Shown here in pieces: positions 12,251 through 64,000 of a DNA stretch of 64,000 nt. The notes under the pieces were generated by a model, which did no database searches, was not told the DNA's origin, and was given only the letters and a program-made list of their open reading frames with translations. Source of the DNA: Schmidtea polychroa (taxonomy: Eukaryota). The DNA lies in contig CM097885.1 in NCBI GenBank assembly GCA_044892525.1, positions 69,130,001 to 69,194,000 of the forward strand, in the 5' to 3' direction. A program made the translations under genes and the position numbers. Within the stretch, counting starts at the first letter, position 1, and the number at the start of each line of letters is the position of its first letter.

Positions 12251-12284
12251 TAACTTAAAAAATTTTAATTACATAAATTGGTCA

Positions 12285-15444: not shown

Positions 15445-15448
15445 ATTA

Positions 15449-22412: not shown

Positions 22413-23509
22413 AAAATAAATTTCAACCTTTTTTGTTTCCTTGAGTAGAATTATCCATATAAATATCTTAGAGTTTGTTATCAACCCACTAAGCTTAAAA
22501 TTTTACGTGTTGGTCTTTTTCAAAAGAAGTTTGCTTACCCCTGACGTATACTATGAAAATGCTGAGTGCCGAATTAGAATAAATAAAAATGAAAACATTA
22601 AGTGATGAAACATGTGACATTAAAATGATTGAGCATTTTGTTCTTCCATAAGGTTTTTATTTTCTTCATTATTATTCGATACTTTAACTGTATTGTTTAA
22701 AAGATCGCATTTTTTGTAAGTATCTCGTTTTAGAAAATCTTAGTGATTTCAAATATATTATTTATAATTTACTTCAAAATGAAAAGGTAACGTAAAAATG
22801 AATAATTTAAATATTACAAGTGACAAAATCAATGTTATATTGAAAGTTGGTGGAAATGTCAACCCGATTGAACTATAAATGGCCTATTGAGTTATGGTCT
22901 GCATGTCATTGGTTTAAATAATTATTTGATTTCTAATTATATTAATTTAATAATTTTTTTAGCTGTAAACGTCTGTACAGAAAGTGGTGAACCATAAATG
23001 AAACATCAAGCTAAAACCTAGGGTTAGGAGGGTGGGTGGTAGATGTAACATTTTTTACTATTACTAAATTTTACACTAAAGCGTAAGTTAACCGATTTTT
23101 TTAGTCAATAATATAATCAAAATTTATTGATAATTAAAACAATTTATTGATAATTTGCAAATGATCCTACATTAAATGTTGTCCTTTTAGGAAAGCGAAA
23201 TTCGTTTCAAGTTAACTATTAATAAAAAATGTAAAATTTAAGTAAAATCATGAAATCATTCAATATTGCAATATCGTTAAATTAATAAATTTTATTTTAG
23301 CACAATTCAAAGCTTGAGCAATTATTTACCATTAAAATACTATTTACAATCTTTCCGATTCGAATTAAATTTATTATTCATACTTAGCTAATTTCAATAG
23401 TCAATGTGCCCAATCCTTGAAATCATAATGATTCATTGACTTATTAAATTAATAAAATTAGATTTCAAATTAATATACAATTTTTATATAATGGAATAAA
23501 CTGTAATAC

Positions 23510-27993: not shown

Positions 27994-30108
27994 TAATTTG
28001 CAATGAGTAAAAATAAATCATTATTAATATTTTGGTGTATGTCTTTAATCAGTTTTTTTTATTTTTTTATACTTAAGGGGAAGATTAGTCGGGAACGTAT
28101 AAATGTTTTACATGCGTTATATTTTTTTGTGTTTATGTAGGTCGGATTCAAAAAGTTTCGTTGTGTCTGTCATTTCCTTATATAATATGTCGTCAATATT
28201 GTAAGTTCCATTTTCTCGGAAGTTAATGCCTAGGCATTCTAAGCATTCTCATGAACTATAGGTATTTTTTCATTAAATATTGTTAGTATTTTATCCTTAT
28301 TGTTTTAATTTTGTCTAAAGTATCTGCATTTACTTGAGTCTATTGTGTGTATTTTTCATCATCAGTTGTGTCAATAAGGATAATGTCAATATTGTCACTG
28401 TTGTTATTATTGTCATGATTGTTGTGTGTTTTGTTTCTATCTGTTTTAGGTGTATTTTCAGCAGTATTATATAGCGGGGTATAAGAGAGTGGGCTACACC
28501 AAACACCACTGAGATATGTTCTCTATAGTGGTGGTTAGCGTGTAGAGCAATTTCTCACTCACCAATTCATTTACAATTCATGTACTGAATTGCTCATCAT
28601 TTATGCATGTTGGAAATTTATTTTAGCCATTTTACAAATGGTTTTCAAGTAAATTTTTTTATTTAAAGTAAATTTTAAGACTTGAATTCTGATCCATATG
28701 AGATATGAGATCATTATTCAAGTTCTAAAATATTACTTTTAATCAACAGTATAATTATAAATTATTTTTAATTAATTTTCAGTGTTCTTTTAGGAAATCA
28801 AATTTGGATTGAAAAGATATTGAACCAAATTCATCTGCTCTTGATATTTCATTAAAAATATAATTTTAAAAATTTTCAACGATCTTTTTTTTTCTAAAAA
28901 TTGTCTAAAATAAAGTTATTATAGAAACGTATCTCATCGTTACATTTCTACAAATCAAAAGTTTGTATGTGTTTTTTAGTATGTGTTGTGTTTGTGTGAT
29001 GTTTTTAATATTTCTTCCACTTTTCAGATTTCTATAGTATAAGATGTATCTCACTGAGCTATAATTGAGAACATTAACGTGATATCAAAGTATGTATGTT
29101 TCTATAATGTAAGATTATTGATTTTTTTGTTATATTATAGGAAATGGTTCTCAGTGGTGTTTGGTGAATATGTGATTGAGTTACTCTCTGTGTTTTTAAT
29201 TGCATTTTGAGATATTGAGTGTTTGCTGTTGATTTTATTTTTATCGTTCTCAATTGTTGTATTTTGCTGGTAAGAAGAAGTTGTATGTTGTGAGTCGATT
29301 TCCTTAAGAGTATCTTTTTTATTTATGTTTGTTTGTTATCATAGGAAGATAATGTAGAGGATATTTATTAAAAGGGTCTGCTGTGATAGTTGAATGTTGT
29401 TATTTTGTCTAGTTGTTGTTCATTTCATAGCATTATTTGTTTTATCGCGTTCAAAGATGTTTATTATTGATATTAAGATCGGTATGTATTGCATTGTTAA
29501 TATGTGGTATGGTGTTTGGTAGGAAAAGGTTATCATGACATCTATGTCTATGTCAAGGTCAACTTTGTTTATGGGATGTTCAGATTGTGGGCGGTCCCCT
29601 GACTGATTTAATTTAAATTTTATACTTTCTAGTTGTGGTTTAGGTATTGGTAAATGGTGATTGTTATCGCGAGTAATTATATTTTGGCTTTCGTGGGATG
29701 TGCTAGGAATTGGTTTAAAGTAATGCGGTCGTAGTATTGAATTTGCTCGTGGGCCTGACTGGTTGGTCGATGCTTGCTGATTTTGCACTAAAATTGACAT
29801 AAACCTAATTAAACTAATGAATTCGTTACATAATTTCTGAAATCAACGTAAAATTAGGATTTATTATAAATTACAACGAAAAGCTCGATTCCATGGTTTT
29901 TCCAGACAAAATAAAGGTTTGACTCAAAAGTTTCTGCCACTGAATAAAACTTTCCGGAATGAAATGTATTAGTTCGTTGTTAATAAATTTGTACCATGAC
30001 TTCTGCAATAGTTCTATTATAACAATAATTATTAATGTTTATTAGAATTTTCAATATTTCTAAAAATATTTAATTATAAAATATTTAATTTGTATGAAAT
30101 TAAAAATT

Positions 30109-31001
30109 TGTTGGATTATTGAGTTGGTGATAAATTTTAAATGTTAATCTGACTCCAAGCGTATCTTTATATGATTCACAAATAACACTTGACAACAGAA
30201 ATCTTTATTGATAATCACAAATAATCTTTCTCTTTACACTGGCAATAGATTCATAACTCTGCTTGGTGACTATACAATGCTTATTACAACACTCGGCGAG
30301 GAATAGCACTTGTGTATAACACCGGATTAAAAGATAACAAATTACTGATTGGTTTATAAACTGGAATTTTGAGCTGGTTGTTTTCTTTGACTTTCTTCAC
30401 AACTTCTTTCAAATAATCAAATAACTTCTTTTCGTTTTATTATTCAACTAATTCTTTTCTTCAACTCTTCTCCAATAATTATTTTCCACAATTATTTCCT
30501 TTACAATTATTTTTGACAATCGTTTGTCCAACAACGTTTCGTCTAACGTCTAGTTCTCTCCAATAATTTTATTTCTCAAATCGTCTCTCAAATTGTCTCT
30601 CAAATCGTTTTCAATTTCGTGTCACTTTGTCTCTAATTTTTCTTCTAACTTTGTTCTAATTTCATGTTCACCAGTTTTCCCTTATATAGTTCGCTTCTCT
30701 TGTGGCACTCCAGATAATCAAGTGTTTTCCCACTTTCCTTCTCCTGCTTTTCCCGACTGTCCCATTTTTATCTCTGACAGCTGTCAAGTTGTTTTTCCCT
30801 TTTTTGTTTGACCGCCTTCTCCCATCAATTCTATTATCACTGGCAAGCTGTCGAGATAAGGATATTGTTGTTTTCCTTTTTCCCCGATTTCAAAATTCCT
30901 TTTCCTTTTTGTAGTAATTAATTAGTACTGATCTTGATTTTTATTTTCCTGTTTGATAACTTTTATTTCATTTCTCTTTCTCATTTTTTAGTAACATTAC
31001 A
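30109..31001 (-). repeat. LTR-like element (family copy A, lacks the middle part of copy C)
   Basis: Highly similar to 35121-36030 and to the ends of 20739-22412 in reverse orientation. Confidence 0.7.
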
Positions 31002-32288: not shown

Positions 32289-34413
32289 CCGTAATTTCCG
32301 GTCTATAAGTCGCGGTTTTTTTCAGACGCTGACGGTGCTGCGACTTAAATAAAGGAGCGACTTATATAATAAGTTTAATCACGGGCCGTTTCTATAATAA
32401 ATCTAAATGTAATCAACAATTTGTGACTGTACTGTCTTTGATGAACTGATAATTGATGCCGTGGTTATCAAAGGCCCTTTTTGTAATATGATACAATCAT
32501 AAACCATCACCATCATTATAATATATCTAAGACGCCATATAGCCTATTTCGTAAACCAAGCTTACAGGATGTCTAGGCTAGGCGAACTGCCGCCATGTTG
32601 GCGTGTCAGTTTAACTGCCGATCTGATTGGTCATTTCGGACCCTGGATCCGAAATTTGAGAGCCCATCAAACAAATGTCAGCTTTAATCACCAGATGGCA
32701 GTGTATATAAGACCGCTGTAATAGATTTCCTGTCAAAACAATTTAATTTTTTAAATTAAAATATACCGAAAGTTTAGTGCAAAATGAGTTCCAACAAAAC
32801 AAGGAAATCGTACACTGCCGAGTTTAAGCTGCAAACTATCAAATTTGCTGAGGAAAACGGCAATCGAGCGACTGAGCGGCGATTTAATATTAGTGAAAAA
32901 CTAGTTCGAGACTGGCGAAAATCAAAAGATGCGCTGTTGCTGACAAAAAGAATCAAGCGGGCGAATCGAGGTCATAAAGCAAGATGGCCAGGACTGGAAA
33001 ATCAGCTTTCTAAGTTTATTGTGGAGCAGCGAGCTCAAGGTCGCGGAATATCAACCGTCCAAGTTCGTCTTAAGGCCAAAGAAATAGCGAATGATCTGGG
33101 AATTGATGAATTCATTGGTGGACCATCTTGGTGTTTTCGTTTCATGAAGCGCCAGCAGCTCTGCATCAGATCAAGAACGATCATGTGTCAACAACTGTCT
33201 GCTGACTACATCGAAAAAATCCGGAATTTTCGTGAATTCATTTATTCAAAAGTCGCGAAATATGAAATCATTTCAGATCATATTATCAACATGGATGAAG
33301 TTCCACTCACCTTCGATATTCCTCTGGGCCGAACTCTCAATAACAAAGGTGAGAAAACGATCAACATAAGAACAACTGGCCACGAGAAATCGCACTTAAC
33401 GGTCGTGCTGTCATGCTGTGGTGATGGAAGGAAGCTTCCTCCAATGATAATCTTCAAAAGGAAAACCATGCCAAAAGAGGCATTTCCCAACAACGTGATC
33501 ATTCAAACCAACGCAAAGGGATGGATGGATGAAGAAATGATGAACATATGGTTGGAGAGATGTTTCAAAAAGAGGCCTGACGGATTCTTCAAAACTAAAA
33601 AGGCATTGCTCGTAATGGACAGTATGCGAGTTCACATCACAGAGAACATAAAAACGAAAGTTAAAGGCAACAACTCGATTCCTGTCATTATACCAGGTGG
33701 TCTGACGAAGGTGCTACAGCCTCTGGATATTTCTGTCAACCGAAGTTTCAAGGTCCATCTGCGTCGTTTGTGGGAAAGATGGATGACCAGCGGTGAACAT
33801 AGCTTTACGGCAACAGGTCGCATGCGTCATGCCACCTTTGCGGAAGTGGCCAAATGGGTGGTCGAGGCATGGGATAAATTGAATCCGGCGATTATCACCA
33901 GTGGATTCAAGAAAGCGGAAATCTTACTGGCAGACAATGATGACAACGACGACTCTGATAGCGATGATGATGATGACAACTATGAACTGACTGTACCAGA
34001 TGAAATTGCTCAATTATTTGAAAGCGATACTGAAGATGAAGGCATTAATGGATTTAATGGATTTACAGACTCTGATTTTTATTGATAAACTTAACTTCAT
34101 TAAACGACATTTATAACTTAGGCATTTCGTTTTATTGATATAAATAATCTCTCTATAAATTAAAAAGAAATATTCCACGTTATTAAATACTTGCGCTAAA
34201 TGATTTTTGTTCTCACCTCTTCTCTTTAGTGTCTTTAATTAAACTTGGCGACCACCACCGAACAAAGTAAACATTACCGCAGAGGCATGCTTATTACTGT
34301 ATAAGTGCGACTTAAATAACGGAGCGACTTATATATTAATTTTTCCAAAATTTTAGCCATTTTTTACAATTGCGACTTGTACACAGGAGCGACTTATTAC
34401 CCGGAAATTACGG
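32289..34413 (+). mobile_element. Intact pogo-superfamily DNA transposon (DD35D, Passer/POGK-like)
   Basis: TIRs CCGTAATTTCCGG...CCGGAAATTACGG extending imperfectly to about 25 bp, TA TSD (32287-32288, 34414-34415), repeated GCGACTTA subterminal motifs. Confidence 0.95.
32784..34085 (+). CDS. Pogo transposase, 433 aa (Brinker-type HTH, CENP-B HTH, DDE_1)
   Basis: RKSYTAEFKLQTIK, WCFRFMKR, NMDEVP, VMDS and QPLD with 35 residues between the second and third Asp; acidic tail; no stops. Confidence 0.95.
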   Translation: MSSNKTRKSYTAEFKLQTIKFAEENGNRATERRFNISEKLVRDWRKSKDALLLTKRIKRANRGHKARWPGLENQLSKFIVEQRAQGRGISTVQVRLKAKEIANDLGIDEFIGGPSWCFRFMKRQQLCIRSRTIMCQQLSADYIEKIRNFREFIYSKVAKYEIISDHIINMDEVPLTFDIPLGRTLNNKGEKTINIRTTGHEKSHLTVVLSCCGDGRKLPPMIIFKRKTMPKEAFPNNVIIQTNAKGWMDEEMMNIWLERCFKKRPDGFFKTKKALLVMDSMRVHITENIKTKVKGNNSIPVIIPGGLTKVLQPLDISVNRSFKVHLRRLWERWMTSGEHSFTATGRMRHATFAEVAKWVVEAWDKLNPAIITSGFKKAEILLADNDDNDDSDSDDDDDNYELTVPDEIAQLFESDTEDEGINGFNGFTDSDFY

Positions 34414-35120: not shown

Positions 35121-36141
35121 TGTTGGGTTATTGAGTTGGTGATAAAATTTAATGTTCTTTATATAATTCACAAATAACACTTGACAACAGAAATCTATAT
35201 TCATAATCACAAATAATCTTTCTCTTTACACTGGCAATAGATTCAACACTCTGCTTGGTGACTATACAATGATTATTACAACACTCGGTGAGGAATAGCA
35301 CTTGTGTATAACACCGGATTAAAAGATCACAAATTACTGATTGGTTTATCAACTGGAATTTTGAGCTGGTTGTTTTCTTTGATTTTCTTCCAAACTTTAT
35401 TCAAATAATAACTTCTTCTAACTTCTTTTCGATTTATTATTCAACTAATTCTTTCCAACTCTTCTCCAATAATTATTTTCCACAATTATTTCCTTTACAA
35501 TTATTTTGACAATCGTTTGTCCAACAACGTTTCGTCCAACGTCTAATTTTCTCCAATAATTTTATTTCTCAAATCGTCTCTCAAATCGTATCTTAAATCG
35601 TCTCTCAAATTGTCTCTCAAATTGTCTCTCAAATCGTTTTCAATTTCGTGTCACTTTGTCTCTAATTTTTCTTCTAATTTTGTTCTCTTTTCATGTTCAC
35701 CAGTTTTCCCTTATATAGTTCGCTTCTCTTGTGGCACTCCAGATAATCAAGTGTTTTCCCACTTTCCTTCTCCTGCTTTTCCCGACTGTCCCATTTTTAT
35801 ATCTGACAGCTGTCAAGTTGTTTTTCCCTTTTACCTTTTTTGTTTGACCGCCTTCTCCCATCAATTCTATTATCACTGGCAAGCTGTCGAGATAAGGATA
35901 TTGTTGTTTTCCTTTTTCCCCGATTTCAAAATTCCTTTTCTTTTTTGTAGTAATTAATTAGTACTGACCTTGATTTTTATTTTCCTGTTTGATAACTTTT
36001 ATTTCATTTCTCTTTCTCATTTTTAATTTCTTTTCACTTCCGTTTTCTTTTAAGTTTCTATAGGCCGTACCGTTTGTCATGGCGATCTTCCCAGAGGTAA
36101 TTTTATTTATTTCTTTATAAATTGTCAAAAGAGTTACAACA
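35121..36141 (-). repeat. Solo-LTR-like element (family copy B)
   Basis: TGTTG...CCCAACA termini on the minus strand; homologous to copies A and C. No TSD found. Confidence 0.7.
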
Positions 36142-46389: not shown

Positions 46390-47294
46390 TGATTCTCCTT
46401 CTCATACCATCTTTATTTATGATATGGCAAAAAAACTTAGTTTCACATTTCAAAAAGTGAGATTTCTCTCGACTCAACTTTAATCCAGATGTTTTAATTC
46501 TGTTTAGGACATTTTTTACTCTTTTATGTGTTCCTCCTTAGTATTTGAAAATATTAAGACGTCGTCCAGGTACACTACAGCTTCTTTCCAATTTAGTGAT
46601 CCAAGCACTTTGTTCATTAATTTCTGGAAAGTAGCAGGAGCCGCTGCTATCCCAAATGGCATACGATTGAAGCAATATTGCTCATTCTTTGTAGAGAAAG
46701 CCGTTTTCGTTTTTTGAATCTTCAGTTAACTCCACTTGGTAATATGCACTGCCTAAATCCAGTGTTGTGAAAAATCACGATCCATTAAGAGCGTCTATCA
46801 TTTCTTCTGTATTTGGTATTGGAAAAATAGGTCGCTCTGTTACTAAATTTAATGCTCGAAAATCTAAGCAAATGCTTATCTCATCTTTGTCTTTCTTTTT
46901 AATGCATACCAGTGGCGAATTCCGTGGTGATTCGCATTTCTTTATAATACCATTCTTTTCCATCTCGTTAATATTTTCTTCTATTTTCGATAAGAGGTGT
47001 AATGGTTTACGTCTTGGGTTAATAAGAATTGGAGGTCCTGTCGTATTTATCTCATGTTGTCCTATTTCTGTTTTACCAATGTCCCATTTATGTTTCATAA
47101 ATACTGTCTCATATTCTTCAATCAATTTCTCGATTTCTTTGTTTTCTTTTTCCATTTTTAAAAATCCTCTTTCTTTTGTTCAATATAACTTATCTCTTAT
47201 TTCTCACTGTCGGGTTATTGGGTTGGTGATAAAATTAGATTTCTTACTCTGACTCCAAGCGTGTCTTTGACTGACCCACAAATAACAATTAACA
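46390..47294 (-). pseudogene. Gypsy RT relic with adjacent LTR U5 fragment (47208-47294)
   Basis: SPRNSPLV, ICLDFRALN, TLDLGSAYYQV, then after a frameshift MPFGIAAAPATFQKLM and YLDD. The neighbouring fragment matches the CCCAACA end of the solo-LTR family. Confidence 0.85.
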
Positions 47295-48399
47295 CTGTGT
47301 TGGGCTAGAACTGATTTCTAGACCCAAACTTCTAATTGTGGCTGCAATGTGTAGGTACACAACATGCAAAAAGCAAAAAGTATAGCTAAATATTAAAAAC
47401 TACACCAAATAAACAATGGTAATTAAAGGTGAAAACAACAAAAAATAAACACAGAAATTAAATAAAATTATACAAAAGCAAGAAGTTATGCAAAATCAAA
47501 CTCAAAAATATCCAAATAAACATAGAATTACAAAAACAGACTCGAATAACTTAAAAAACGGTAAAAACAGTAAAAATTTCCAGAAAACCCAGAACATTCC
47601 ATAAAAATGGCGAGGACCATCACAAAAGCCATCTAGAATAATAAAAGTTAGGAAAATAAATAAATTCGTATTAAAAATAAAAAATCTTAAAAAGAAATTC
47701 ATAAAACATGAGTTAAAATAAAAATAAAATTAAAATTAACATGGAATGTTCTGGAACCGTTCCAAATCCATCATGGACGTCAAATTAATGAAAAATAATT
47801 AAAAAATAAAAATTTAAAAATAGAAACAAAAATTATGGCCCAAAAATTGCCATTAAAAATATCAAAATCGCAAAATAGAAAATTCTGGAATAAAAAGAAT
47901 TCGAGTTTGTTTTAATGCATCAATACATACACGTGTACAAAATAGGTATATATACTGACACGTTTCAGCCACAGATCATCATTATTTTATGCCAAAATTT
48001 TTTTGTACTATTGCTTCATTTTATTGATTATTATTTTATTTCATTATTATGTATCTATTGTTGACCCATTTATGTTAAACGATTAAAATGATTTATATTT
48101 TGATTTTGCTTAATTAATTTTTTTTTGTTGTGTGTGATGTACGGATGTTCAACGGCGTACTGGTATTCCTGCGTCGTTGTTCAGACCTGCATCCAATTTT
48201 GTAAAATCTCATAGGACATGTAAACCTGCATTATCTATATTATATTAATCCATATTATACGGCTCTTTTTGTTCGGGTCAGCCGGAGGTCGAACTACTTC
48301 ATGGTCCTGCCATGGAGTTAGGTCGAGGAAACCATCCGCCTGACTCTTTGTATTTATCTAAGGTCAACCGTAAATGGTCAACAAGTAAATATTACCAAC

Positions 48400-48780
48400 A
48401 TTATTAGCAGATTTACTCATATTATTAATATTATTATTCTTCTTAGTAATATCATTATTTTTATCATTATTATTATCCCTAGTATTATTAAGGTAAATTA
48501 CAACGATTTACAAGCAAATATTATCAACATTATTGACAGTATTACTCATATTATTAATGCTATTATCCTTCTTATTATTATCATTATTATTACCATTATT
48601 ATTATCATTACGATTATCATTATTATTATTATTATCATTATTATCATTTGTACCATCACTATTATCATCATTTTTACTATTACTAAGGATATTATTACCA
48701 CTATCACCCTTAATTTCATGGTCATTAATGTCATCATTAATAGTATTAACATTAGTAGCATAGCTATCCTTATTCGACGA
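48400..48780. repeat. (ATT/ATC)n low-complexity microsatellite region
   Basis: Runs of ATTATT/ATCATT generate spurious N/D-, L- and I/M-rich ORFs. Confidence 0.85.
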
Positions 48781-48919
48781 AAATAAACTTAGAAACTGAA
48801 TTATTAATTTTGGGATTCCCCAGTAGGTAGATAGTGGCCTACGGCAGCAATGACCCCCCCCATGGGGGGGGGGGGGTTCTGCTGCCGTAATTTTTTTGCT
48901 GCAACTTTTGATTACGCAA

Positions 48920-50200
48920 TTTTTCAGACTATAGTGAGGGGGTCTCGATGGTCCTGGGATTTTCAATGCAAAAAAAATTTTTTCTATACAAAAACGATGG
49001 TCCTGGGATTTTCAATACAAAAAAAATTTTTCTATACAAAAATCCGACTACCACTAAAAAAGCATGGAATTTTCACACTATAGTGAGGGGGTCTCGATGG
49101 TCCTGGGATTTTCAATGCAAAAAAAATTTTTTCTATACAAAAACGATGGTCCTGGGATTTTCAATACAAAAAAAATTTTTCTATACAAAAATCCGACTAC
49201 CACTAAAAAAGCATGGAATTTTCACACTATAGTGAGGGGGTCTCGATGGTCCTGGGATTTTCAATACAAATAAAATTTTTTCTATACAAAAACGATGGTC
49301 CTGGGATTTTCAATACAAATAAAATTTTTTCAATACAAAAAGGCGGTCTCACTAAAAAAGCATGGAATTTTCAGACTATAGTGATGGGGTCTCGATGGTC
49401 CTGGGATTTTCAATACAAATAAAATTTTTTCTATACAAAAACGATGGTCCTGGGATTTTCAATACAAAAAAAATTTTTCAATACAAAAAGGCGGTCTCAC
49501 TAAAAAAGCATGGATTTTTCAGACTATAGTGAGGTGAGTCTCCTTGGTCCTGAGAAATAGGTGGTCTACACTAGAAAAATGTGGTAATTTAAGGTCTCAG
49601 GATATTTTCAATACAAAAAGCTGGTCTACACTAAAAAAGCCAAGGATTTTTCAGACTATAGCGAGGTGAGTCTCCTTGGTCCTGAGAAATAAGGGGGTCT
49701 CGATGGACCTGGGATTTTCAATACAAATAAAATTTTTTCTATACAAAAATCCGACTACCACTAAAAAAGCATGGAATTTTCACACTATAGTGAGGGGGTC
49801 TCGATGGAACTGGGATTTTCAATACAAATAAAATTTTTCTATACAAAAATCCGACTATCAATAAAAAAGTCAAGGATTATTCACACTATAGTGAGGGGGT
49901 CTCGATGAACCTGGGATTTTCAATACAAATAAAATTTTTTCTATACAAAAATCCGACTACCACTAAAAAAGCCAAGGATTTTTCAGACTATAGTGAGGGG
50001 GTCTCGATGGTCCTGGGATTTTCAATACAAAAAAAATTTTTCAATACAAAAAGCTGGTCTACACTAAAAAAGCATGGTAATTTAAGGTCTCAGGATATTT
50101 TCAATACAAAAAGCTGGTCTACACTAAAAAAGCCAAGGATTTTTCAGACTATAGTGAGGTGAGTCTCCTTGGTCCTGAGAAATAGGTGGTCTACACTAAA
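48920..50200 (+). repeat. Modular tandem array (149-bp main period, with 60-70 bp variant modules); mirrored at about 62440-63780
   Basis: Recurrent ACTATAGTGAGGGGGTCTCGATGGTCCTGGGATTTTCAATACAAA; repeat-derived ORF starts at 49064 and 49213 differ by 149. Confidence 0.9.
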
Positions 50201-50214
50201 AACGTGGTAAATTT

Positions 50215-50610
50215 TTCAATTAAAGTAAATAATGGTCCAAATTTTAAAATTAAAGTAAATTATGGTTCTAAAAATTAAATTATAGTAAATTATGGCTCAA
50301 ATTTTTAAATTACAGTAAATTATGGTCCTAAAAATTAAATTACAGTAAATTATGGTCAAACATTTTAAATTAAAAAAAACAATGGTTCAAATTTTTCAAA
50401 TACAGTAAATTATGGGTCTAAAAATTAAATTACAGTAAATAATGGTTCTAAAAATTAAATTAAAGTAAATTATGGTTCTAAAATATTAAATTACAGTAAA
50501 TTATGGTCCAGATTTTTCAATTAAAGTAAATAATGGTCCAAATTTTTAAATTAAAGTAAATTTAAGTTCTTAAAAATTAAATTACAGTAAATAATGGTCC
50601 AAATTTTTAA
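50215..50610 (+). repeat. ~30-bp tandem array (AAATTACAGTAAATTATGGTCC...); mirrored at about 62030-62420
   Basis: About 13 degenerate copies visible. Confidence 0.85.
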
Positions 50611-50999
50611 ATTAAGTAATCAATGGTAAAAAATTTTAAATAAGTAAATTAAAGTAATAATTTTTAAATTAAGTAATCAATGGTAAAAAATTTTAAATAA
50701 GTAAATTAAAGTAAGATTTTAAAATTTAATTACAAAATAATAGAAGGTGTTTGAGAATTGAAATTTTTTAATGAAAATTTTTATGAAATAATTTTTAAGT
50801 AATTTTTAATAGAAATTTTAATGAAATATTTTTCAATGGTAATTTTTAATGGAAATTTTTATGGAATAATTTTTTAAGTAATTTTTAATGTAAATTTTTA
50901 TGAAATATTTTTCAATGATAATTTTAGATGGAAATTTTTAAGATAATTTTTAATGAAAATTTTTATGAAATATTTATCAAAGACAAATTTTAATAATAA

Positions 51000-52420
51000 T
51001 TCAACAACAAACCAACAACTTAGTACCAACAACCAGTAACTTACGAACATGTATTAACAACCAGATACCTACAACTAGTTACTAACAACTAGTTACATGA
51101 TACTAAGTAAATACAACCACCTAACAAGTACTAACAACCAAAAACAAGCAACCAACCAGGTACCAGTTACCAACTACTAAGTACCTACAACCAACTAGTT
51201 ACCTGATACCAAGTACTTACAACTAAATACTAACAACCAGTTACCTGATACCTAGTACTTACAACTAGTTACTAACAACCAAAAACAAGCAACCAACTAG
51301 GTACCAAGTACTAACAACCAAAAACAACTAGCTAACAACTAGATACCAAGTACCTACAACCACCTACCTATTAACTAGCTACCAAGTACTAACAACTAAC
51401 AACAATCAGGTACTAGATACCAAGTACTTACAACCTACAACAACTAGGTACTAAGCATTATCAACCAAGTACCTAAAACCACCTAACAAGTACATACAAC
51501 CAACATCAACCAGGTACCTACAACTAGATACTAACAAACAGTTACCAAGTACCTACAACCACCTACCCATTAACTAGCTACAACCAGCTAACAACTAGCT
51601 ACCAAGTACTAACAACCAACAACCAGCTAACAACTAACAACCAGATACCTACTACTTACAACCAACAACTAAGTACTAACAACCAGCTAACAACTAGATA
51701 CTAACAACCAGTTACCTGATACCAAGTACCTACAACTAGATACCACGTACTAAATAACTCTCAAACAACCAAGTACCTACAACTAATTACCAGATACCAA
51801 GTACTATCAACCAGCTAACAACCTGATACCAACTACTCACAACCAGATAACAACTAACAACCAGATACCAAGTACTTACAACTAGTTACTAACAACTAGC
51901 TACCAACTACTAAGTACTAACAACCAACATCAACCAGGTACTAAGCATTATCAACCAAGTACTAACAACTAGATACCTAGTTACTAACAACCCGCTAACA
52001 ACTAACAACTAGATACCAAGTACCAGTAAATTACGAACATGTATTAACAACCAGATACCTACAACTAGTTACCTGATAGCAACCAACTAGCTACCAACTA
52101 CTAAGTACCTACAACCAACATCAACCAGGTACTAAGCATTAATTACCAACTACTAAGTACCTACAACCAACTAACAACCACCTACCAAGTACTAAGCATT
52201 ATCAACCAACTACTAAGTACCTACAACCAACTAGCTACCACCTACCAAGTACTAACAACCAGTTACCAACTACTAAGCATTAATTACCTACAACTAGTTA
52301 CTAACAACTAGATACCAAGTACATACAACCAACATCAACCAGGTACTAGATACCAAGTACTAACAACCAAGTAACTTACCTAGTAATAAGCACTGTCAAC
52401 TAGATACCAAACACTTACAA
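51000..52420 (+). repeat. A/C-rich shuffled minisatellite; mirrored at about 60220-61640
   Basis: Built from ACAACCAG, ACAACTAG, ATACCAAGTAC and TAACAAC modules. Confidence 0.85.
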
Positions 52421-52726
52421 GCAGATGACCACATGAAATTATTGGTTAAATATGAAAATAAGGGTTATAATTAGTTGTTAAGTAAATTATGGTGTAAAAT
52501 TAAGAAATAAAGAATAATTAGGTAAATTAAAGTAATAATTTTAAAAAAGTAAATTAAGGTTCAAATTTTAAATTAAATAAGTAAATTAAAGTAATAATTT
52601 TTAAATAAGTAATGTACTAAGTAAATTAAACTAAGATTTTTAAATTTATTATCAAAAGATTGAATAACAACCAACTTTTTTGAGAAATGTAATTTATAAT
52701 GAAAATTTAAATGGAAATTTTAATGG

Positions 52727-52758
<32 letters not shown>

Positions 52759-53194
52759 TAATAATAATAATAAAAATAATAATAATTCAACAGTTACCAA
52801 CAATCGGTTACTAAATATTTTTAACTAAGTGCTAACAAATACTTACAACTAGATACCACGTACTAACTCTCAAACAACCAGATACTTACAACGAACTACT
52901 AAATATTCTTCATTGTATTTTATGAAATGCTTTTTAAATTAATTTTTTATCTATCTTCAAAAATATATTTAATTACAATCATTAGAAAAACCTTTTCAAA
53001 TTTAACAAAAAATGTTGATTTTCATCAAAAAACCACAACTCATCACCACGTGGATTTCAAAATAATTTTAATTACAATGAAAGACTAATGAATTCTAATT
53101 TACAAAACATTCTTCTTTTAAATGATAACTTATTATTGCAATGTAAAAATCGCATTCAATAAATACTTATTGTTGATCAGTTTTATTATATATA

Positions 53195-55336
53195 CTCTGA
53201 GTTTATCCGACAGGATGTTTTGACCCCCTAAGGGTACTGGTCGTAAGGGTATTAGTCGTAAGGGTACTAGTCGTAGGGGTATTGGTAACTCTCAACCCCC
53301 CACCTACCCATTAAGTAGTTACTATCAATCAGCTAACAACTAGATACCATGTACTAACAACCACCATCAAAACCCATCGAGAAATTAACAACACTGTACC
53401 AACTACCAAATACAAGAAACCAACAACTTAGTACCAACAATCAACTAACAACACATAAAAATAATAGCAATTAAATAAAAAAAAAATTATTCTTCATCGC
53501 ATACACTATTTTCTTATCAAAATCTAAAAAGTCAACCAACTACTTACAACCAACAACTATGTACTAACAAATTGATCTTTAAAAGCAAATACTCATCACT
53601 TGAAAAATTAGATGGAAAATTATTTGAACTCAAGGCATCAATAACTAGGTAAAATTTGATTAAATTATTGTAAAAATTTAAATTATTCAAAATAAATATC
53701 ATAAAAATTTAATTAATGGACAGGAAAAAATTCTAATCATTAATCATCCAGTAAATAAAAAAAATACTGATCATTCAAGTTGAATCAACTAAGATAATAA
53801 ATTAATAAAAGTTTTGAAATAAGATCTAGATTTAGATTGAATAAAATTAATTTTAATTATTTTTGTAAAAGTAATACATGTACTCAAATTGATTGACTGA
53901 TTTCTCAATATATTCAAAAAATCAGTATAAATTCATTACAATTATCAAAGTCAGCAATCTACAATAAAAATAATTATCATTAAATTCCAAAAGAGACTAG
54001 ATAACTAATGATAACATCTAACAAACCAGTAAATTCATTTAAATGGCAATAATTGGTATATCCAAGTGAATTCTCTAATAAAATCATCTAAAAAGCATCA
54101 TTTTCCCTAAATATATCAATATTTAAAGATTGGTATTGTAATGATAAAGTCAATCGACTATATCTCCCTTACAATGATCTATTTCCATCTTAACCCATCC
54201 CTCATTAAATTTAATAACCGACAATATCCCATCTTAACCGATCTCTCAGCAAATATTTCTACCCTTTTAAACATCTATCCGATTATATCCCTTATTTTCC
54301 CTAAAGATTTCACCCACTTGAGCCCTTTAATATATATCAATCCTCTTAAAATCCTCAGAGAACTTCAAAAATCTGACTTTTAATTAATTGTTATAGAACC
54401 AGACAAATAATAAGAGCCCATTAAAAGATCAAAATTCACTAAATTTTCTACAAATATTTACCATCAAATACTGGAGATGATATATATTGTTTGATCATAA
54501 TTCTTCAGCTATTCAACCAATCATTTTCAAGCAATAACAGCAAACTAAATTTCTGTATATCCTACAATAATTATCACGTAAATTTAAAGTCCTTGATAAA
54601 GTTGGTTTCTTAGCTTATGTTTTTTAAAGGGCATCAATGTGTAAATATTCTTAGAAAATTATTCTTAGAAAATTATTTATTCAAATATATTACAAAGTTA
54701 TCATCAAAAATAACTTAATTATTAACCTAATTGTCAATGAAATTAATTTTTATTTAAAAACTATTCAATAAAATACAACTAATTATCAAGAAATTAATTA
54801 AATTTATCAATTAAATTTATCACCATTAAAACTTTTAATCAGTCAACATGAAATTCTTAGAAAATTATTCAATATCCTCATCAAAATTTATCCTACCACT
54901 TGATTATTGTACAAACTTTAATTATTAACCTCATTAAAAATAAATTTTTATTTAAAATTAAAAAACAAGTCAATAAAAATACATTCAATTATCATGAAAT
55001 TAATTAAATTTACCTTAGAATTAGCATTAAATTAGAGATATTCACAAAAATTACGGAAATTCATGAAAATAATGGAAATCCATAAAAATGATAGAAATTC
55101 ATAAAAACGATAAAAATTCACAAAAATGATAGAAATTCACAAAAATGATAGAAATTTACTTGAATAAAACCATCAACTCTAAACATTATCAATACCTTAA
55201 ACATCAAATTTGCCTAAATAATCATTCAAATAAAAGCATTAAATGATCAGTACCCTTGCGACATGTTGAATGTGAGTAGTACCCTTGTGAGCAATACCCA
55301 TAGGGGGACAGAATATTTTGTCGGATAAACTCAGAG
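53195..55336. mobile_element. 2142-bp non-autonomous TIR element nested in the left arm
   Basis: Perfect 18-bp TIR CTCTGAGTTTATCCGACA extending imperfectly to about 45 bp, TA(TATA) on both flanks, GGGTAC subterminal repeats. Confidence 0.75.
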
Positions 55337-55826
55337 TATATATTAATTAACTCATTCTTCATTGAATTAGTCAAATTATCATAAATTTCGATAAAAATTC
55401 TAAAGTGGTAAGCAATGTAAAGAGAAATATTCTTTAAACTTTGATAAAATTAACAATGAAGGTGGTAAGAATCTTCATTAAAGTGAGGAAATTATTCATT
55501 ACTCGATTCAAATGGGTGAAAATAATTGGTAGAATAATTCATTAATGGATCATTGAATGGGCATAGATAAGAAGAAAGTTGATAAGAATGCAAATATATT
55601 AATTGAATTTATTTAAAATTATTTCATAAAATTCATAAATTTAATAAAAAAAAGAAATATTTGTGGGGAATAATTAATCAAAATCGGGGGGAATATAAGT
55701 GATAATAATTAGTGGAAAATAGAGAATCGGGGGGATATAAGTGAGGAGGATATATAATTTAAACTAGTTTATTACATAACAACCCGCGTCTAGTTTATTA
55801 CATAACAAGCTGTGAATGGTATTTTA

Positions 55827-56783
55827 TTGAGAATTATTGATTAGGTCTTTTTTATAATTTTTGAATAAGTACTTTAATACCTTAATAATTTAAATGTTTT
55901 GATTTACACTAAATAATTTCTAAATCAATTACCCTTTTCAATCAAAATAAGATCAATTATATACCTTTTTATAAAATTCAGTTAAAATTAAATACTTTCC
56001 ACTAAATTTAAAATATATAAATTTTATAAGTTTTTCAAATTTTCAAATAATGTAAATAAGAAATTAATCTATTACCAGTTACATACTTATTGACGGAATT
56101 ACGTAATAGAAATAAAAAGTAACTTAGGTTATTTTTTTTTCAAAATTATGACTAAGTCCTTTAATATTGTAATAATAGCTATTTATTAATAAATTTATTA
56201 TTTTACGTTAAATATTTCAAAAACAATTATCATATTATTAATTATATTACCCTTTTTAATCAAAATAAGATAACTATTCAAATAGATGATTTTTATAAAT
56301 TACAATAAAAATTAAATACTTTTACACTAAATTTAAAAATATAAATTTTATAAGTAAATGTGAATAAGAAATAAGTGTATTATCAGTTATAGACTTTTAA
56401 AACTTATTGATTAGATATTAAAAGTTACTTTTTTTTCAAAAAGTCCTTTAATATTGTATTCTATTCATTATTAAATTTACTATTTTACACTAAAATATTT
56501 TAATTTAGAAAACAATCATCATAATATTAAATATGATACTTCAATCAAAATAAGTTAATACTCAAATATTTGTCTTAAAAATTAAATCAAAATTAAATAC
56601 TTCACTAAATTTTAAGTAAAGTTTTTTTAAATTCTCAAATAAATGTTAACAAGATATTAATTTATTAATCATTATAGACTTTTTAAACTTATTATTGGAA
56701 TAAAAAACAATATAATGATATTCAAAATATATACAATTTTAAAATATAATTAAAATTAAATTACATACTAGGTAAAATGTTGG
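55827..56783. repeat. 957-bp non-palindromic AT-rich spacer made of about three diverged ~300-bp direct repeats
   Basis: AATCAAAATAAG at 55940, 56258 and 56543, each followed by AAAATTAAATACTT..CACTAAATTT. Confidence 0.8.
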
Positions 56784-57299
56784 TAAAATACCATTCACAG
56801 CTTGTCATGTAATAAACTAGTCATGGCTTGTTATGTAATAAACTAGACGCGGGTTGTTATGTAATAAACTAGTTTAAATTATATATCCTCCTCACTTATA
56901 TCCCCCCGATTCTCTATTTTCCACTAATTATTATCACTTATATTCCCCCCGATTTTGATTAATTATTCCCCACAAATATTTCTTTTTTTTATTAAATTTA
57001 TGAATTTTATGAAATAATTTTAAATAAATTCAATTAATATATTTGCATTCTTATCAACTTTCTTCTTATCTATGCCCATTCAATGATCCATTAATGAATT
57101 ATTCTACCAATTATTTTCACCCATTTGAATCGAGTAATGAATAATTTCCTCACTTTAATGAAGATTCTTACCACCTTCATTGTTAATTTTATCAAAGTTT
57201 AAAGAATATTTCTCTTTACATTGCTTACCACTTTAGAATTTTTATCGAAATTTATGATAATTTGACTAATTCAATGAAGAATGAGTTAATTAATATATA

Positions 57300-59441
57300 C
57301 TCTGAGTTTATCCGACAAAATATTCTGTCCCCCTATGGGTATTGCTCACAAGGGTACTACTCACATTCAACATGTCGCAAGGGTACTGATCATTTAATGC
57401 TTTTATTTGAATGATTATTTAGGCAAATTTGATGTTTAAGGTATTGATAATGTTTAGAGTTGATGGTTTTATTCAAGTAAATTTCTATCATTTTTGTGAA
57501 TTTCTATCATTTTTGTGAATTTTTATCGTTTTTATGAATTTCTATCATTTTTATGGATTTCCATTATTTTCATGAATTTCCGTAATTTTTGTGAATATCT
57601 CTAATTTAATGCTAATTCTAAGGTAAATTTAATTAATTTCATGATAATTGAATGTATTTTTATTGACTTGTTTTTTAATTTTAAATAAAAATTTATTTTT
57701 AATGAGGTTAATAATTAAAGTTTGTACAATAATCAAGTGGTAGGATAAATTTTGATGAGGATATTGAATAATTTTCTAAGAATTTCATGTTGACTGATTA
57801 AAAGTTTTAATGGTGATAAATTTAATTGATAAATTTAATTAATTTCTTGATAATTAGTTGTATTTTATTGAATAGTTTTTAAATAAAAATTAATTTCATT
57901 GACAATTAGGTTAATAATTAAGTTATTTTTGATGATAACTTTGTAATATATTTGAATAAATAATTTTCTAAGAATAATTTTCTAAGAATATTTACACATT
58001 GATGCCCTTTAAAAAACATAAGCTAAGAAACCAACTTTATCAAGGACTTTAAATTTACGTGATAATTATTGTAGGATATACAGAAATTTAGTTTGCTGTT
58101 ATTGCTTGAAAATGATTGGTTGAATAGCTGAAGAATTATGATCAAACAATATATATCATCTCCAGTATTTGATGGTAAATATTTGTAGAAAATTTAGTGA
58201 ATTTTGATCTTTTAATGGGCTCTTATTATTTGTCTGGTTCTATAACAATTAATTAAAAGTCAGATTTTTGAAGTTCTCTGAGGATTTTAAGAGGATTGAT
58301 ATATATTAAAGGGCTCAAGTGGGTGAAATCTTTAGGGAAAATAAGGGATATAATCGGATAGATGTTTAAAAGGGTAGAAATATTTGCTGAGAGATCGGTT
58401 AAGATGGGATATTGTCGGTTATTAAATTTAATGAGGGATGGGTTAAGATGGAAATAGATCATTGTAAGGGAGATATAGTCGATTGACTTTATCATTACAA
58501 TACCAATCTTTAAATATTGATATATTTAGGGAAAATGATGCTTTTTAGATGATTTTATTAGAGAATTCACTTGGATATACCAATTATTGCCATTTAAATG
58601 AATTTACTGGTTTGTTAGATGTTATCATTAGTTATCTAGTCTCTTTTGGAATTTAATGATAATTATTTTTATTGTAGATTGCTGACTTTGATAATTGTAA
58701 TGAATTTATACTGATTTTTTGAATATATTGAGAAATCAGTCAATCAATTTGAGTACATGTATTACTTTTACAAAAATAATTAAAATTAATTTTATTCAAT
58801 CTAAATCTAGATCTTATTTCAAAACTTTTATTAATTTATTATCTTAGTTGATTCAACTTGAATGATCAGTATTTTTTTTATTTACTGGATGATTAATGAT
58901 TAGAATTTTTTCCTGTCCATTAATTAAATTTTTATGATATTTATTTTGAATAATTTAAATTTTTACAATAATTTAATCAAATTTTACCTAGTTATTGATG
59001 CCTTGAGTTCAAATAATTTTCCATCTAATTTTTCAAGTGATGAGTATTTGCTTTTAAAGATCAATTTGTTAGTACATAGTTGTTGGTTGTAAGTAGTTGG
59101 TTGACTTTTTAGATTTTGATAAGAAAATAGTGTATGCGATGAAGAATAATTTTTTTTTTATTTAATTGCTATTATTTTTATGTGTTGTTAGTTGATTGTT
59201 GGTACTAAGTTGTTGGTTTCTTGTATTTGGTAGTTGGTACAGTGTTGTTAATTTCTCGATGGGTTTTGATGGTGGTTGTTAGTACATGGTATCTAGTTGT
59301 TAGCTGATTGATAGTAACTACTTAATGGGTAGGTGGGGGGTTGAGAGTTACCAATACCCCTACGACTAGTACCCTTACGACTAATACCCTTACGACCAGT
59401 ACCCTTAGGGGGTCAAAACATCCTGTCGGATAAACTCAGAG
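57300..59441. mobile_element. Mirror copy of the nested TIR element in the right arm
   Basis: Exact mirror coordinates (paired positions sum to 112636); same TIRs and TA flanks. Confidence 0.75.
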
Positions 59442-59877
59442 TATATATAATAAAACTGATCAACAATAAGTATTTATTGAATGCGATTTTTACATTGCAA
59501 TAATAAGTTATCATTTAAAAGAAGAATGTTTTGTAAATTAGAATTCATTAGTCTTTCATTGTAATTAAAATTATTTTGAAATCCACGTGGTGATGAGTTG
59601 TGGTTTTTTGATGAAAATCAACATTTTTTGTTAAATTTGAAAAGGTTTTTCTAATGATTGTAATTAAATATATTTTTGAAGATAGATAAAAAATTAATTT
59701 AAAAAGCATTTCATAAAATACAATGAAGAATATTTAGTAGTTCGTTGTAAGTATCTGGTTGTTTGAGAGTTAGTACGTGGTATCTAGTTGTAAGTATTTG
59801 TTAGCACTTAGTTAAAAATATTTAGTAACCGATTGTTGGTAACTGTTGAATTATTATTATTTTTATTATTATTATTA

Positions 59878-59909
<32 letters not shown>

Positions 59910-62900
59910 CCATTAAAATTTCCATTTAAATTTTCATTATAAATTACATTTCTCAAAAAAGTTGGTTGTTATTCAATCTTTTGATAATAAATTTAAAAAT
60001 CTTAGTTTAATTTACTTAGTACATTACTTATTTAAAAATTATTACTTTAATTTACTTATTTAATTTAAAATTTGAACCTTAATTTACTTTTTTAAAATTA
60101 TTACTTTAATTTACCTAATTATTCTTTATTTCTTAATTTTACACCATAATTTACTTAACAACTAATTATAACCCTTATTTTCATATTTAACCAATAATTT
60201 CATGTGGTCATCTGCTTGTAAGTGTTTGGTATCTAGTTGACAGTGCTTATTACTAGGTAAGTTACTTGGTTGTTAGTACTTGGTATCTAGTACCTGGTTG
60301 ATGTTGGTTGTATGTACTTGGTATCTAGTTGTTAGTAACTAGTTGTAGGTAATTAATGCTTAGTAGTTGGTAACTGGTTGTTAGTACTTGGTAGGTGGTA
60401 GCTAGTTGGTTGTAGGTACTTAGTAGTTGGTTGATAATGCTTAGTACTTGGTAGGTGGTTGTTAGTTGGTTGTAGGTACTTAGTAGTTGGTAATTAATGC
60501 TTAGTACCTGGTTGATGTTGGTTGTAGGTACTTAGTAGTTGGTAGCTAGTTGGTTGCTATCAGGTAACTAGTTGTAGGTATCTGGTTGTTAATACATGTT
60601 CGTAATTTACTGGTACTTGGTATCTAGTTGTTAGTTGTTAGCGGGTTGTTAGTAACTAGGTATCTAGTTGTTAGTACTTGGTTGATAATGCTTAGTACCT
60701 GGTTGATGTTGGTTGTTAGTACTTAGTAGTTGGTAGCTAGTTGTTAGTAACTAGTTGTAAGTACTTGGTATCTGGTTGTTAGTTGTTATCTGGTTGTGAG
60801 TAGTTGGTATCAGGTTGTTAGCTGGTTGATAGTACTTGGTATCTGGTAATTAGTTGTAGGTACTTGGTTGTTTGAGAGTTATTTAGTACGTGGTATCTAG
60901 TTGTAGGTACTTGGTATCAGGTAACTGGTTGTTAGTATCTAGTTGTTAGCTGGTTGTTAGTACTTAGTTGTTGGTTGTAAGTAGTAGGTATCTGGTTGTT
61001 AGTTGTTAGCTGGTTGTTGGTTGTTAGTACTTGGTAGCTAGTTGTTAGCTGGTTGTAGCTAGTTAATGGGTAGGTGGTTGTAGGTACTTGGTAACTGTTT
61101 GTTAGTATCTAGTTGTAGGTACCTGGTTGATGTTGGTTGTATGTACTTGTTAGGTGGTTTTAGGTACTTGGTTGATAATGCTTAGTACCTAGTTGTTGTA
61201 GGTTGTAAGTACTTGGTATCTAGTACCTGATTGTTGTTAGTTGTTAGTACTTGGTAGCTAGTTAATAGGTAGGTGGTTGTAGGTACTTGGTATCTAGTTG
61301 TTAGCTAGTTGTTTTTGGTTGTTAGTACTTGGTACCTAGTTGGTTGCTTGTTTTTGGTTGTTAGTAACTAGTTGTAAGTACTAGGTATCAGGTAACTGGT
61401 TGTTAGTATTTAGTTGTAAGTACTTGGTATCAGGTAACTAGTTGGTTGTAGGTACTTAGTAGTTGGTAACTGGTACCTGGTTGGTTGCTTGTTTTTGGTT
61501 GTTAGTACTTGTTAGGTGGTTGTATTTACTTAGTATCATGTAACTAGTTGTTAGTAACTAGTTGTAGGTATCTGGTTGTTAATACATGTTCGTAAGTTAC
61601 TGGTTGTTGGTACTAAGTTGTTGGTTTGTTGTTGAATTATTATTAAAATTTGTCTTTGATAAATATTTCATAAAAATTTTCATTAAAAATTATCTTAAAA
61701 ATTTCCATCTAAAATTATCATTGAAAAATATTTCATAAAAATTTACATTAAAAATTACTTAAAAAATTATTCCATAAAAATTTCCATTAAAAATTACCAT
61801 TGAAAAATATTTCATTAAAATTTCTATTAAAAATTACTTAAAAATTATTTCATAAAAATTTTCATTAAAAAATTTCAATTCTCAAACACCTTCTATTATT
61901 TTGTAATTAAATTTTAAAATCTTACTTTAATTTACTTATTTAAAATTTTTTACCATTGATTACTTAATTTAAAAATTATTACTTTAATTTACTTATTTAA
62001 AATTTTTTACCATTGATTACTTAATTTAAAAATTTGGACCATTATTTACTGTAATTTAATTTTTAAGAACTTAAATTTACTTTAATTTAAAAATTTGGAC
62101 CATTATTTACTTTAATTGAAAAATCTGGACCATAATTTACTGTAATTTAATATTTTAGAACCATAATTTACTTTAATTTAATTTTTAGAACCATTATTTA
62201 CTGTAATTTAATTTTTAGACCCATAATTTACTGTATTTGAAAAATTTGAACCATTGTTTTTTTTAATTTAAAATGTTTGACCATAATTTACTGTAATTTA
62301 ATTTTTAGGACCATAATTTACTGTAATTTAAAAATTTGAGCCATAATTTACTATAATTTAATTTTTAGAACCATAATTTACTTTAATTTTAAAATTTGGA
62401 CCATTATTTACTTTAATTGAAAAATTTACCACGTTTTTAGTGTAGACCACCTATTTCTCAGGACCAAGGAGACTCACCTCACTATAGTCTGAAAAATCCT
62501 TGGCTTTTTTAGTGTAGACCAGCTTTTTGTATTGAAAATATCCTGAGACCTTAAATTACCATGCTTTTTTAGTGTAGACCAGCTTTTTGTATTGAAAAAT
62601 TTTTTTTGTATTGAAAATCCCAGGACCATCGAGACCCCCTCACTATAGTCTGAAAAATCCTTGGCTTTTTTAGTGGTAGTCGGATTTTTGTATAGAAAAA
62701 ATTTTATTTGTATTGAAAATCCCAGGTTCATCGAGACCCCCTCACTATAGTGTGAATAATCCTTGACTTTTTTATTGATAGTCGGATTTTTGTATAGAAA
62801 AATTTTATTTGTATTGAAAATCCCAGTTCCATCGAGACCCCCTCACTATAGTGTGAAAATTCCATGCTTTTTTAGTGGTAGTCGGATTTTTGTATAGAAA

Positions 62901-64000
62901 AAATTTTATTTGTATTGAAAATCCCAGGTCCATCGAGACCCCCTTATTTCTCAGGACCAAGGAGACTCACCTCGCTATAGTCTGAAAAATCCTTGGCTTT
63001 TTTAGTGTAGACCAGCTTTTTGTATTGAAAATATCCTGAGACCTTAAATTACCATGCTTTTTTAGTGTAGACCAGCTTTTTGTATTGAAAATATCCTGAG
63101 ACCTTAAATTACCACATTTTTCTAGTGTAGACCACCTATTTCTCAGGACCAAGGAGACTCACCTCACTATAGTCTGAAAAATCCATGCTTTTTTAGTGAG
63201 ACCGCCTTTTTGTATTGAAAAATTTTTTTTGTATTGAAAATCCCAGGACCATCGTTTTTGTATAGAAAAAATTTTATTTGTATTGAAAATCCCAGGACCA
63301 TCGAGACCCCATCACTATAGTCTGAAAATTCCATGCTTTTTTAGTGAGACCGCCTTTTTGTATTGAAAAAATTTTATTTGTATTGAAAATCCCAGGACCA
63401 TCGTTTTTGTATAGAAAAAATTTTATTTGTATTGAAAATCCCAGGACCATCGAGACCCCCTCACTATAGTGTGAAAATTCCATGCTTTTTTAGTGGTAGT
63501 CGGATTTTTGTATAGAAAAATTTTTTTTGTATTGAAAATCCCAGGACCATCGTTTTTGTATAGAAAAAATTTTTTTTGCATTGAAAATCCCAGGACCATC
63601 GAGACCCCCTCACTATAGTGTGAAAATTCCATGCTTTTTTAGTGGTAGTCGGATTTTTGTATAGAAAAATTTTTTTTGTATTGAAAATCCCAGGACCATC
63701 GTTTTTGTATAGAAAAAATTTTTTTTGCATTGAAAATCCCAGGACCATCGAGACCCCCTCACTATAGTCTGAAAAATTGCGTAATCAAAAGTTGCAGCAA
63801 AAAAATTACGGCAGCAGAACCCCCCCCCCCCCCCCCCCATGGGGGGGGGGTCATTGCTGCCGTAGGCCACTATCTACCTACTTTCCCCTATCGCTAAATT
63901 TAGCTGCATTAGCCCTATCTACCCATAAACTCACGGAAGATCACTAAAGTCTATCTTTAACAACACCCCCCCCGGAGGACGACGTCAAAGTATTAATTTA

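Follow-up and report, generated by a model that had tools for sequence, protein, structure and literature searches.

The window, i.e., the whole analysed stretch of 64,000 nucleotides from Schmidtea polychroa, carries a gene-less palindrome of 15,061 bp at positions 48822 to 63882. Two arms surround a spacer and constitute 93.6% of the element, which is enclosed by a short direct duplication. The following features were delimited:

48816..48821, + strand: left target-site duplication TTCCCC, present as a single copy in eight paralogous empty sites
48822..55826, + strand: left arm, 7005 bp (self-BLAST, arm comparison)
48822..48844, + strand: terminal 23 nt, identical to the ends of coding Polinton copies (sequence comparison); presumed candidate for the origin and integrase site
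48840..48891, + strand: sub-terminal G+C-rich hairpin around a C-run and a G-run (folding energy, end-type comparison)
48921..51000, + strand: tandem repeats of 149, 101, 60, 30, and 13 bp; TIR-homologous part (repeat analysis, comparison)
51001..55826, + strand: inner arm, non-coding, with ACC-rich and AT-rich sequence (composition, homology comparison)
55827..56783, + strand: spacer (loop), 957 bp, 15% G+C, with an internal offset repeat of ~318 bp; used as family marker
56784..63882, - strand: right arm, 7099 bp, with an extra 26-bp unit, an extra 60-bp unit, and eight extra homopolymer bases (arm comparison)
63883..63888, + strand: right target-site duplication TTCCCC (sequence)

Self-BLAST of the window returned a single inverted match, 48822-55826 against 63882-56810, and the arm and spacer lengths given in the original prediction were reproduced exactly. 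The same applies to its account of the 94-bp difference between the arms: a base-by-base comparison attributes it to the 60-bp unit (62998-63057), the 26-bp unit (56800-56825), and eight C/G homopolymer bases. Once both units are taken out of the right arm, 6963 of 7005 bases agree when read outwards from the inner end and 40 when read inwards from the tip; the remaining difference is C8/G13 versus C10/G19. Hence, the arms differ by three indel events and by no substitution. The ends, predicted as AGT...ACT with a TTCCCC duplication, read AGTAGG...CCTACT with TTCCCC on both sides. The first 100 nt, which hold the sub-terminal hairpin, fold as DNA with -23.8 kcal/mol, and the stem of this hairpin varies in step between end types.

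The palindrome had been described as coding-free, and no gene was detected in it. The longest ATG-started frame comprises 94 aa; a tblastn search with the proteins of the coding Polinton family described below gave no match below E 0.11 and revealed no decayed coding remnants. Genes for PolB and integrase are absent (ORFs from ATG of at most 94 aa; tblastn), as are, according to tblastn, those for ATPase and capsid, which are present only in the coding family. A comparison with Rfam yielded nothing beyond one weak chance match; for a 7SL head in particular, neither the left arm and spacer of the window element nor five related loci gave an SRP match.

The element is inserted in a retrotransposon remnant. 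The empty site predicted for it exists at eight places elsewhere in the same assembly, and run X1 likewise contains it, in the form of a loose contig end. Among the contigs listed, none spans the filled junction, so that this one insertion is not backed by independent reads here. This, together with the lack of substitutions between the arms, which could reflect polishing, would fit an assembly artefact built from fold-back chimeric reads or collapsed arms. Such an origin is extremely improbable, however, as the differing flanks rejoin into an empty site that is present eight times, the arms differ by three indel events, and matching duplications were found at 15 other copies. The window element is a real, recently inserted copy.

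A coding Polinton family sharing its ends was found in the same genome, and these termini adjoin Polinton genes. This family has the same first 23 nt as the window element and shows homology to its outer ~2.2 kb. In nine of ten polymerase loci sampled, the identical terminal 23 nt were accompanied by TIR homology of 67-82%, corresponding to 48921..51000 in the window, and copies with the capsid marker are likewise bordered by the window-type end. The potential helper encodes a polymerase (PF03175), an A32-type ATPase, an rve integrase, and a double-jelly-roll capsid protein (predicted fold with pLDDT 93, Foldseek E 1e-15). Pfam gave no name to helper ORFs of 344, 338, and 408 aa; the 408-aa ORF was assigned by structure prediction, while the 344-aa ORF resembles only viral hypothetical proteins. 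Among nine copies, the capsid gene shows 0-1 differences in 1224 bases, and the coding family is very young. Median lengths are 16.5 kb for gene-less and 17.6 kb for coding elements; 20 of 28 spacer-bearing elements measure 14-18.5 kb, and six of eight coding elements 16.6-17.9 kb.

The window element could alternatively be a cut-and-paste foldback element (FB, Galileo, or Mutator-like) that merely resembles Polintons. Its TIRs, long and internally repetitive, enclose a short loop and so have the foldback architecture, and TIR extension and exchange among copies are shared with FB/Galileo, as passages of PMC3573991 describe. According to the same passages, however, these elements rely on a P-superfamily cut-and-paste transposase, have TIRs of about 0.3-1.2 kb, and show no Polinton ends. 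The ends of the window element belong to elements with Polinton genes rather than to a cut-and-paste transposase family, and they are, together with the outer 2.2 kb, common to polymerase-, integrase-, and capsid-coding elements. This alternative is therefore already largely refuted and very improbable.

The spacer marker has 605 exact matches in the genome; the first 100 listed lie scattered over 110 Mb of the largest contig. Matching 6-bp duplications flank all four copies of one sample and 11 of 18 further copies of another; insertions with different 6-bp duplications, as the original prediction demanded of a mobile element, are thus found in many copies. The gene-less, TIR-dominated elements form a dispersed family of several hundred members with the ends of the coding family and 6-bp duplications. 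A centromere-type locus, i.e., inverted repeats around an AT-rich core, had been offered as an alternative by analogy to fungal regional centromeres. The spacer, with 85% A+T between inverted repeats, has the expected composition. Nevertheless, the dispersal of the 605 markers, i.e., of hundreds of copies, the transposition footprints, the insertion in a retrotransposon remnant, and an animal-type genome leave this reading a negligible probability.

Unlike arms are common among relatives (k-mer sharing of 0.37-0.71 in 12 of 13), many of them between intact duplications, and since arms are often unlike, symmetrisation is not obligatory. In favour of the reading preferred below, twelve symmetric copies contain 21 copy-private variant sites on both arms versus 14 on one arm, whereby 12 of the 21 derive from a single copy. 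Even relatives with no more than 80-84% spacer similarity measure 15.4-17.7 kb; short end pairs of 2.5 and 8.0 kb also occur. The outer arms had suggested a polarity in which one arm travels with the spacer and the other is replaced, but no such bias was found at the inner flanks, where among 74 pairs the 5' flank is more alike in 17 and the 3' flank in 37. The pairs L105/L109 and L088/L089 were rejected as independent asymmetric insertions; they share flanks, represent segmental duplicates, and were counted once.

Fold-back from one end, originally proposed for the window element, is shown for polymerase-bearing relatives but not for the window lineage. In five palindromes, each arm contains the polymerase, and all five inverted polymerase pairs are palindromes flanked by target-site duplications. 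One of them (C1:264.96 Mb) folds at an imperfect hairpin with a 5-nt loop that is already present in unfolded sister genes; up to the fold point, its arm repeats one helper end in inverted orientation, and a clean 6-bp duplication lies outside. Fold-back events thus occur in this system. In the window element, only the outer 2.2 kb of the 7-kb arm match coding copies, while nothing similar to the inner 4.8 kb and the spacer was found among the coding pieces sampled; positions 54443-55088 are 73% similar to a region that lies upstream of the polymerase in one of the polymerase-bearing palindromes. The unmatched inner part and the unlike arms of relatives point to an old recombining satellite lineage rather than a fresh copy-back product. 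Short palindromes with target-site duplications (7.4 and 12.6 kb) and the short end pairs show that full length is not needed for integration.

Giant identical arms might also result from host processes that act on a non-autonomous Polinton derivative once it is inserted, namely gene conversion from arm to arm, ectopic recombination, and break repair, instead of protein-primed replication, in which case the size match would reflect common descent only. Flank-swapped and duplicated copies are present in the family, and in some copies the two flanks are reverse complements of each other; moreover, the P-type element Galileo extends its TIR by recruiting inner sequence, as part of PMC3573991 describes. 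We nevertheless regard host processes as unlikely, because the fold centre at C1:264.96 Mb lies on a hairpin of the parent gene inside a clean duplication, perfect duplications persist at copies with unlike ends, and lengths are retained despite the divergence of the spacers.

Our preferred reading is that the window element is a non-autonomous satellite of the resident Polinton/Maverick family, which we consider probable. It is supported by the shared ends, the 6-bp duplications, and the similar length. AG...CT ends, a 6-bp target duplication, and a size of 15-18 kb agree with Polintons/Mavericks as described in passages of PMC10748475, PMC8097293, and PMC6431247. In contrast to these, the window element lacks genes, its TIRs of 7 kb exceed the 100-1,500 bp (PMC10748475) or 46-1,447 bp (PMC8097293) given there, and its end AGTAGG is not exactly the (AGT)2 or (AG)3 of Polintons; the coding family here has the same end. 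The inverted duplication of one end and the presumed helper dependence resemble AAV snapback genomes (passages of PMC10924063), as does, in the polymerase-bearing relative, the fold at a short hairpin. Unlike snap-back and copy-back genomes, the window family is integrated, inherited, of full helper length, and contains filler that was not found in the helper.

In vitro, template switching reportedly produces palindromic mini-genomes of phi29 (Esteban et al., 1997). Gene-less zebrafish Polinton derivatives, possibly with long TIRs, are reported in Repbase and by Kapitonov & Jurka (2006); should they be palindromic, the architecture as such would not be new. The literature searched, with the founding papers and Repbase outside its scope, contained no description of palindromic gene-less Polintons, and a phrase match concerned Tlr1; this does not establish absence from print.

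Having the same ends and a similar length as Polintons, the satellite most likely borrows their enzymes in trans to copy and jump. Integration would very probably be carried out by the retroviral-like integrase of the helper. It is also rather likely that the protein-primed polymerase of the helper copies the satellite outside the chromosome, starting at either end. The displaced strand would form a panhandle of several kb, and template switching, from arm to arm as well as from one molecule to another, could both re-symmetrise the arms, as in the window copy, and shuffle them, as in mosaic copies. Homology-restoring panhandle models exist for adenovirus and PRD1, with direct evidence for panhandles described as lacking in a passage of PMC11886824. 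On balance, we slightly favour an origin of the giant arms by fold-back priming, as in the polymerase-bearing relatives, after which coding DNA would have been swapped for filler.

More tentatively, the length near 16-17 kb might reflect passage of the copies through the capsid of the helper. It is equally speculative that a size-matched satellite combines replication by the helper polymerase with capsid packaging, its arms serving as length-variable filler held near helper length. If true, the satellite would act like a heritable defective-interfering genome outnumbering this helper family, and the sub-terminal hairpin would belong to the origin or packaging signal. In that case, the genome would also testify indirectly to a particle stage in the cycle of animal Polintons; according to PMC8097293 (2021) and PMC10748475 (2023), Maverick particles had not been observed. 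The replication route is a model.

With a coding family of very recent age next to hundreds of gene-less palindromes, a single genome offers natural footprints of this route, namely fold points, arm conversion, and length constraint, as easy observational targets. Such elements escape gene-based Polinton surveys, and palindromes of this size probably give rise to rearrangements and to breaks in assemblies. The family would account for close to 10 Mb (1.2%) of the assembly if all 605 copies had the full length of about 16 kb.

Self-comparison resolved the gene-less palindrome, in window coordinates, into two arms around a spacer of 957 bp.

Left arm, 48822-55826
Right arm, 56784-63882

The geometry given in the original prediction was reproduced exactly, down to the 94-bp difference between the arms, which is made up of a 26-bp unit, a 60-bp unit and 8 bases of homopolymer, with 0 substitutions. 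TTCCCC borders the element at either end. Both flanks joined by a single TTCCCC form an uninterrupted site that the assembly contains 8 times (control 0), and in a contig of sequencing run X1 the left flank passes directly into the right flank. This empty site fixes the target duplication at 6 bp, as had been claimed, and excludes a simple fold-back chimera as the source of the palindrome; among the contigs listed, none spans the filled junction. Absence of coding also held: the longest ATG frame measures 94 aa, and proteins of the coding family, the resident Polintons with polymerase, integrase, ATPase and capsid genes, gave nothing below E 0.11 in tblastn. The assembly comprises 781 Mb with four large contigs, and the window is part of a 272-Mb contig. 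The palindrome is hosted by decayed, repeated retroelement-like sequence (window 46700-48821 and the right flank) with an RT-like frame on the minus strand.

The further copies expected elsewhere were found, and the window element is one copy of a dispersed family, not a single occurrence. Its terminal 139 bp yielded 40 scored matches at 94-100% and its spacer 40 at 98-100%; a 24-mer taken from the spacer has at least 605 exact occurrences in the assembly (control 0), and exact matches to two variants of the end number 136 and 638. All four copies paired from the terminal 139-bp matches are palindromic around a homologous spacer and contain no frame of 200 aa; their target duplications match in 4/4. 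Eleven of 18 further copies, including one segmental duplicate pair (2/11), carry matching duplications, with lengths of 15,982-17,612 bp. Among the other seven, one agrees at 5/6 bases, two possess both ends but flanks that do not match, and four have one end only.

A coding Polinton sharing the element ends, likewise predicted, is present. A PF03175 profile search of the assembly gave 91 scored matches among 8818 candidates. Nine of ten sampled polymerase loci have a common gene set upstream, including A32-type ATPase, rve integrase, TBP-like and RING genes, and an element end downstream, whose first 23 nt are identical to those of the window element in 8 of the nine; their TIR and the outer ~2.2 kb of the window arm match at 67-82%. 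The tenth locus represents a different Polinton family. The gene set also encodes a 408-aa protein, and its predicted model (pLDDT 93) matches double-jelly-roll major capsid proteins (E 1e-15). Its gene shows 0-1 differences per 1224 bases among nine copies, and thus the coding family is very young. An exact marker from this gene occurs at least 202 times in the assembly; set against 605, this compares gene-less copies with this helper family only, other Polinton families being abundant in the genome. The integrase is split over two adjacent frames in 9/9 pieces holding the gene set. The intervals noted for the TBP-like gene, the RING-finger gene and this integrase of the coding family are 581-1093, 2311-3471 and 7630-8775 of locus L074.

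The window element is real: it is a palindromic satellite of a Polinton family, present in high copy and devoid of genes, and it bears the testable marks of a non-autonomous Polinton derivative. It is not an autonomous Polinton, from which it differs by its lack of genes and by TIRs far above the 100-1,500 bp given in PMC10748475. By resemblance only, it would work like a snap-back defective genome and may be likened in appearance to a foldback transposon (as outlined in PMC3573991). No description of palindromic gene-less Polintons was found in the literature searched, the founding Polinton papers lying outside that search. Non-autonomous zebrafish Polintons have been catalogued.

The proposed copy-back origin stood in part. 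Five inverted polymerase pairs occur among the 91 PF03175 matches, and each (5/5) is a palindrome bounded by 6-bp duplications; their lengths range from about 7.4 to 16 kb and their centres differ. The centre of the 7.4-kb palindrome falls within its polymerase gene, at an imperfect hairpin whose loop is 5 nt long; unfolded sister genes already have this hairpin, and the asymmetry of the parent is retained. Such a centre is the expected footprint of single-strand fold-back priming. The origin of the window lineage is less clear: its inner 4.8 kb of arm and its spacer match none of the sampled coding pieces, the exceptions being short repeats and one polymerase palindrome, at 73%. The centre of another polymerase palindrome (L053:5965-6266, contig C1:126.06 Mb) resembles either a miniature element or the junction of a head-to-head dimer, with two converging ends ~300 bp apart beside repeats of the TIR type. 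A separate Polinton family, whose DNA shows no relationship to that of the window element, also forms a palindrome at loci L065-L067 (C1:235.38-235.40 Mb), which is flanked by TSDs and carries the polymerase in each arm.

Within the gene-less family the arms are mosaic. When the two outer arms of one copy are compared, k-mer sharing is 0.97 in one of 13 relatives and 0.37-0.71 in the remaining 12, and copies with different end variants retain perfect duplications. Near the spacer, 12/24 copies are symmetric; here, private sites lie on both arms in 21 cases (12 from one copy) and on one arm in 14. Repeated arm-to-arm copying and exchange between molecules could produce this pattern, and strand-displacement replication with panhandles would fit both. 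Panhandle replication is a model for adenovirus and PRD1, for which PMC11886824 states that direct evidence is lacking. The main rival source of arm-to-arm copying is host gene conversion. Multimeric forms occur as a 25-kb element at L154-L156 (contig C2:135.577-135.602 Mb), with two spacers 9.7 kb apart and mutually reverse complementary flanking 6-mers, and at C2:12.029-12.067 Mb, with three ends on the same strand 7.5 kb apart.

Bases 19-70 of the window element are predicted to fold around a C-run and a G-run. A stem of 6-9 bp is found in 66/77 distinct ends, and its five sequence variants are each still complementary, which suggests a possible role as single strand. Local template switching without selection can also change stems in this way, and the ends compared are related.

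In the largest contig, element length was surveyed over the first 96 Mb, where 120 exact ends gave 44 pairs <40 kb, defined by exact ends alone and sorted by the markers between them. The spacer marker occurs in 28, the capsid marker in 8, neither in 8 and both in 0. Median lengths are 16.5 kb for spacer-marker and 17.6 kb for capsid-marker pairs (p 0.09); 20/28 gene-less pairs measure 14-18.5 kb, and in 21/28 the spacer lies at 0.46-0.55 of element length. For intact vertebrate Mavericks, PMC8097293 gives a mean length of 16,862 +/- 1,678 bp, which its authors interpret as a constrained genome size. That the family is a capsid-packaged satellite matched in size to its helper is a bolder reading, which we hold only tentatively and consider rather unlikely; part of the agreement in length may stem from common descent, and the genome also holds shorter integrated forms.

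The window further contains a large Ty3/gypsy-type element (1399-15447) with 1114-bp direct repeats 99.7% alike and a perfect 397-bp tandem duplication (8942-9736); its first long frame combines Bcl-2-like, viral fusion glycoprotein (PF24664), protease and RT domains. A DDE transposase frame of Tc5/pogo type with Brinker and HTH domains lies at 32778-34085, and another dispersed repeat occurs in both orientations at 20788-22414, 30107-30988 and 35121-36125 (85-89% alike).
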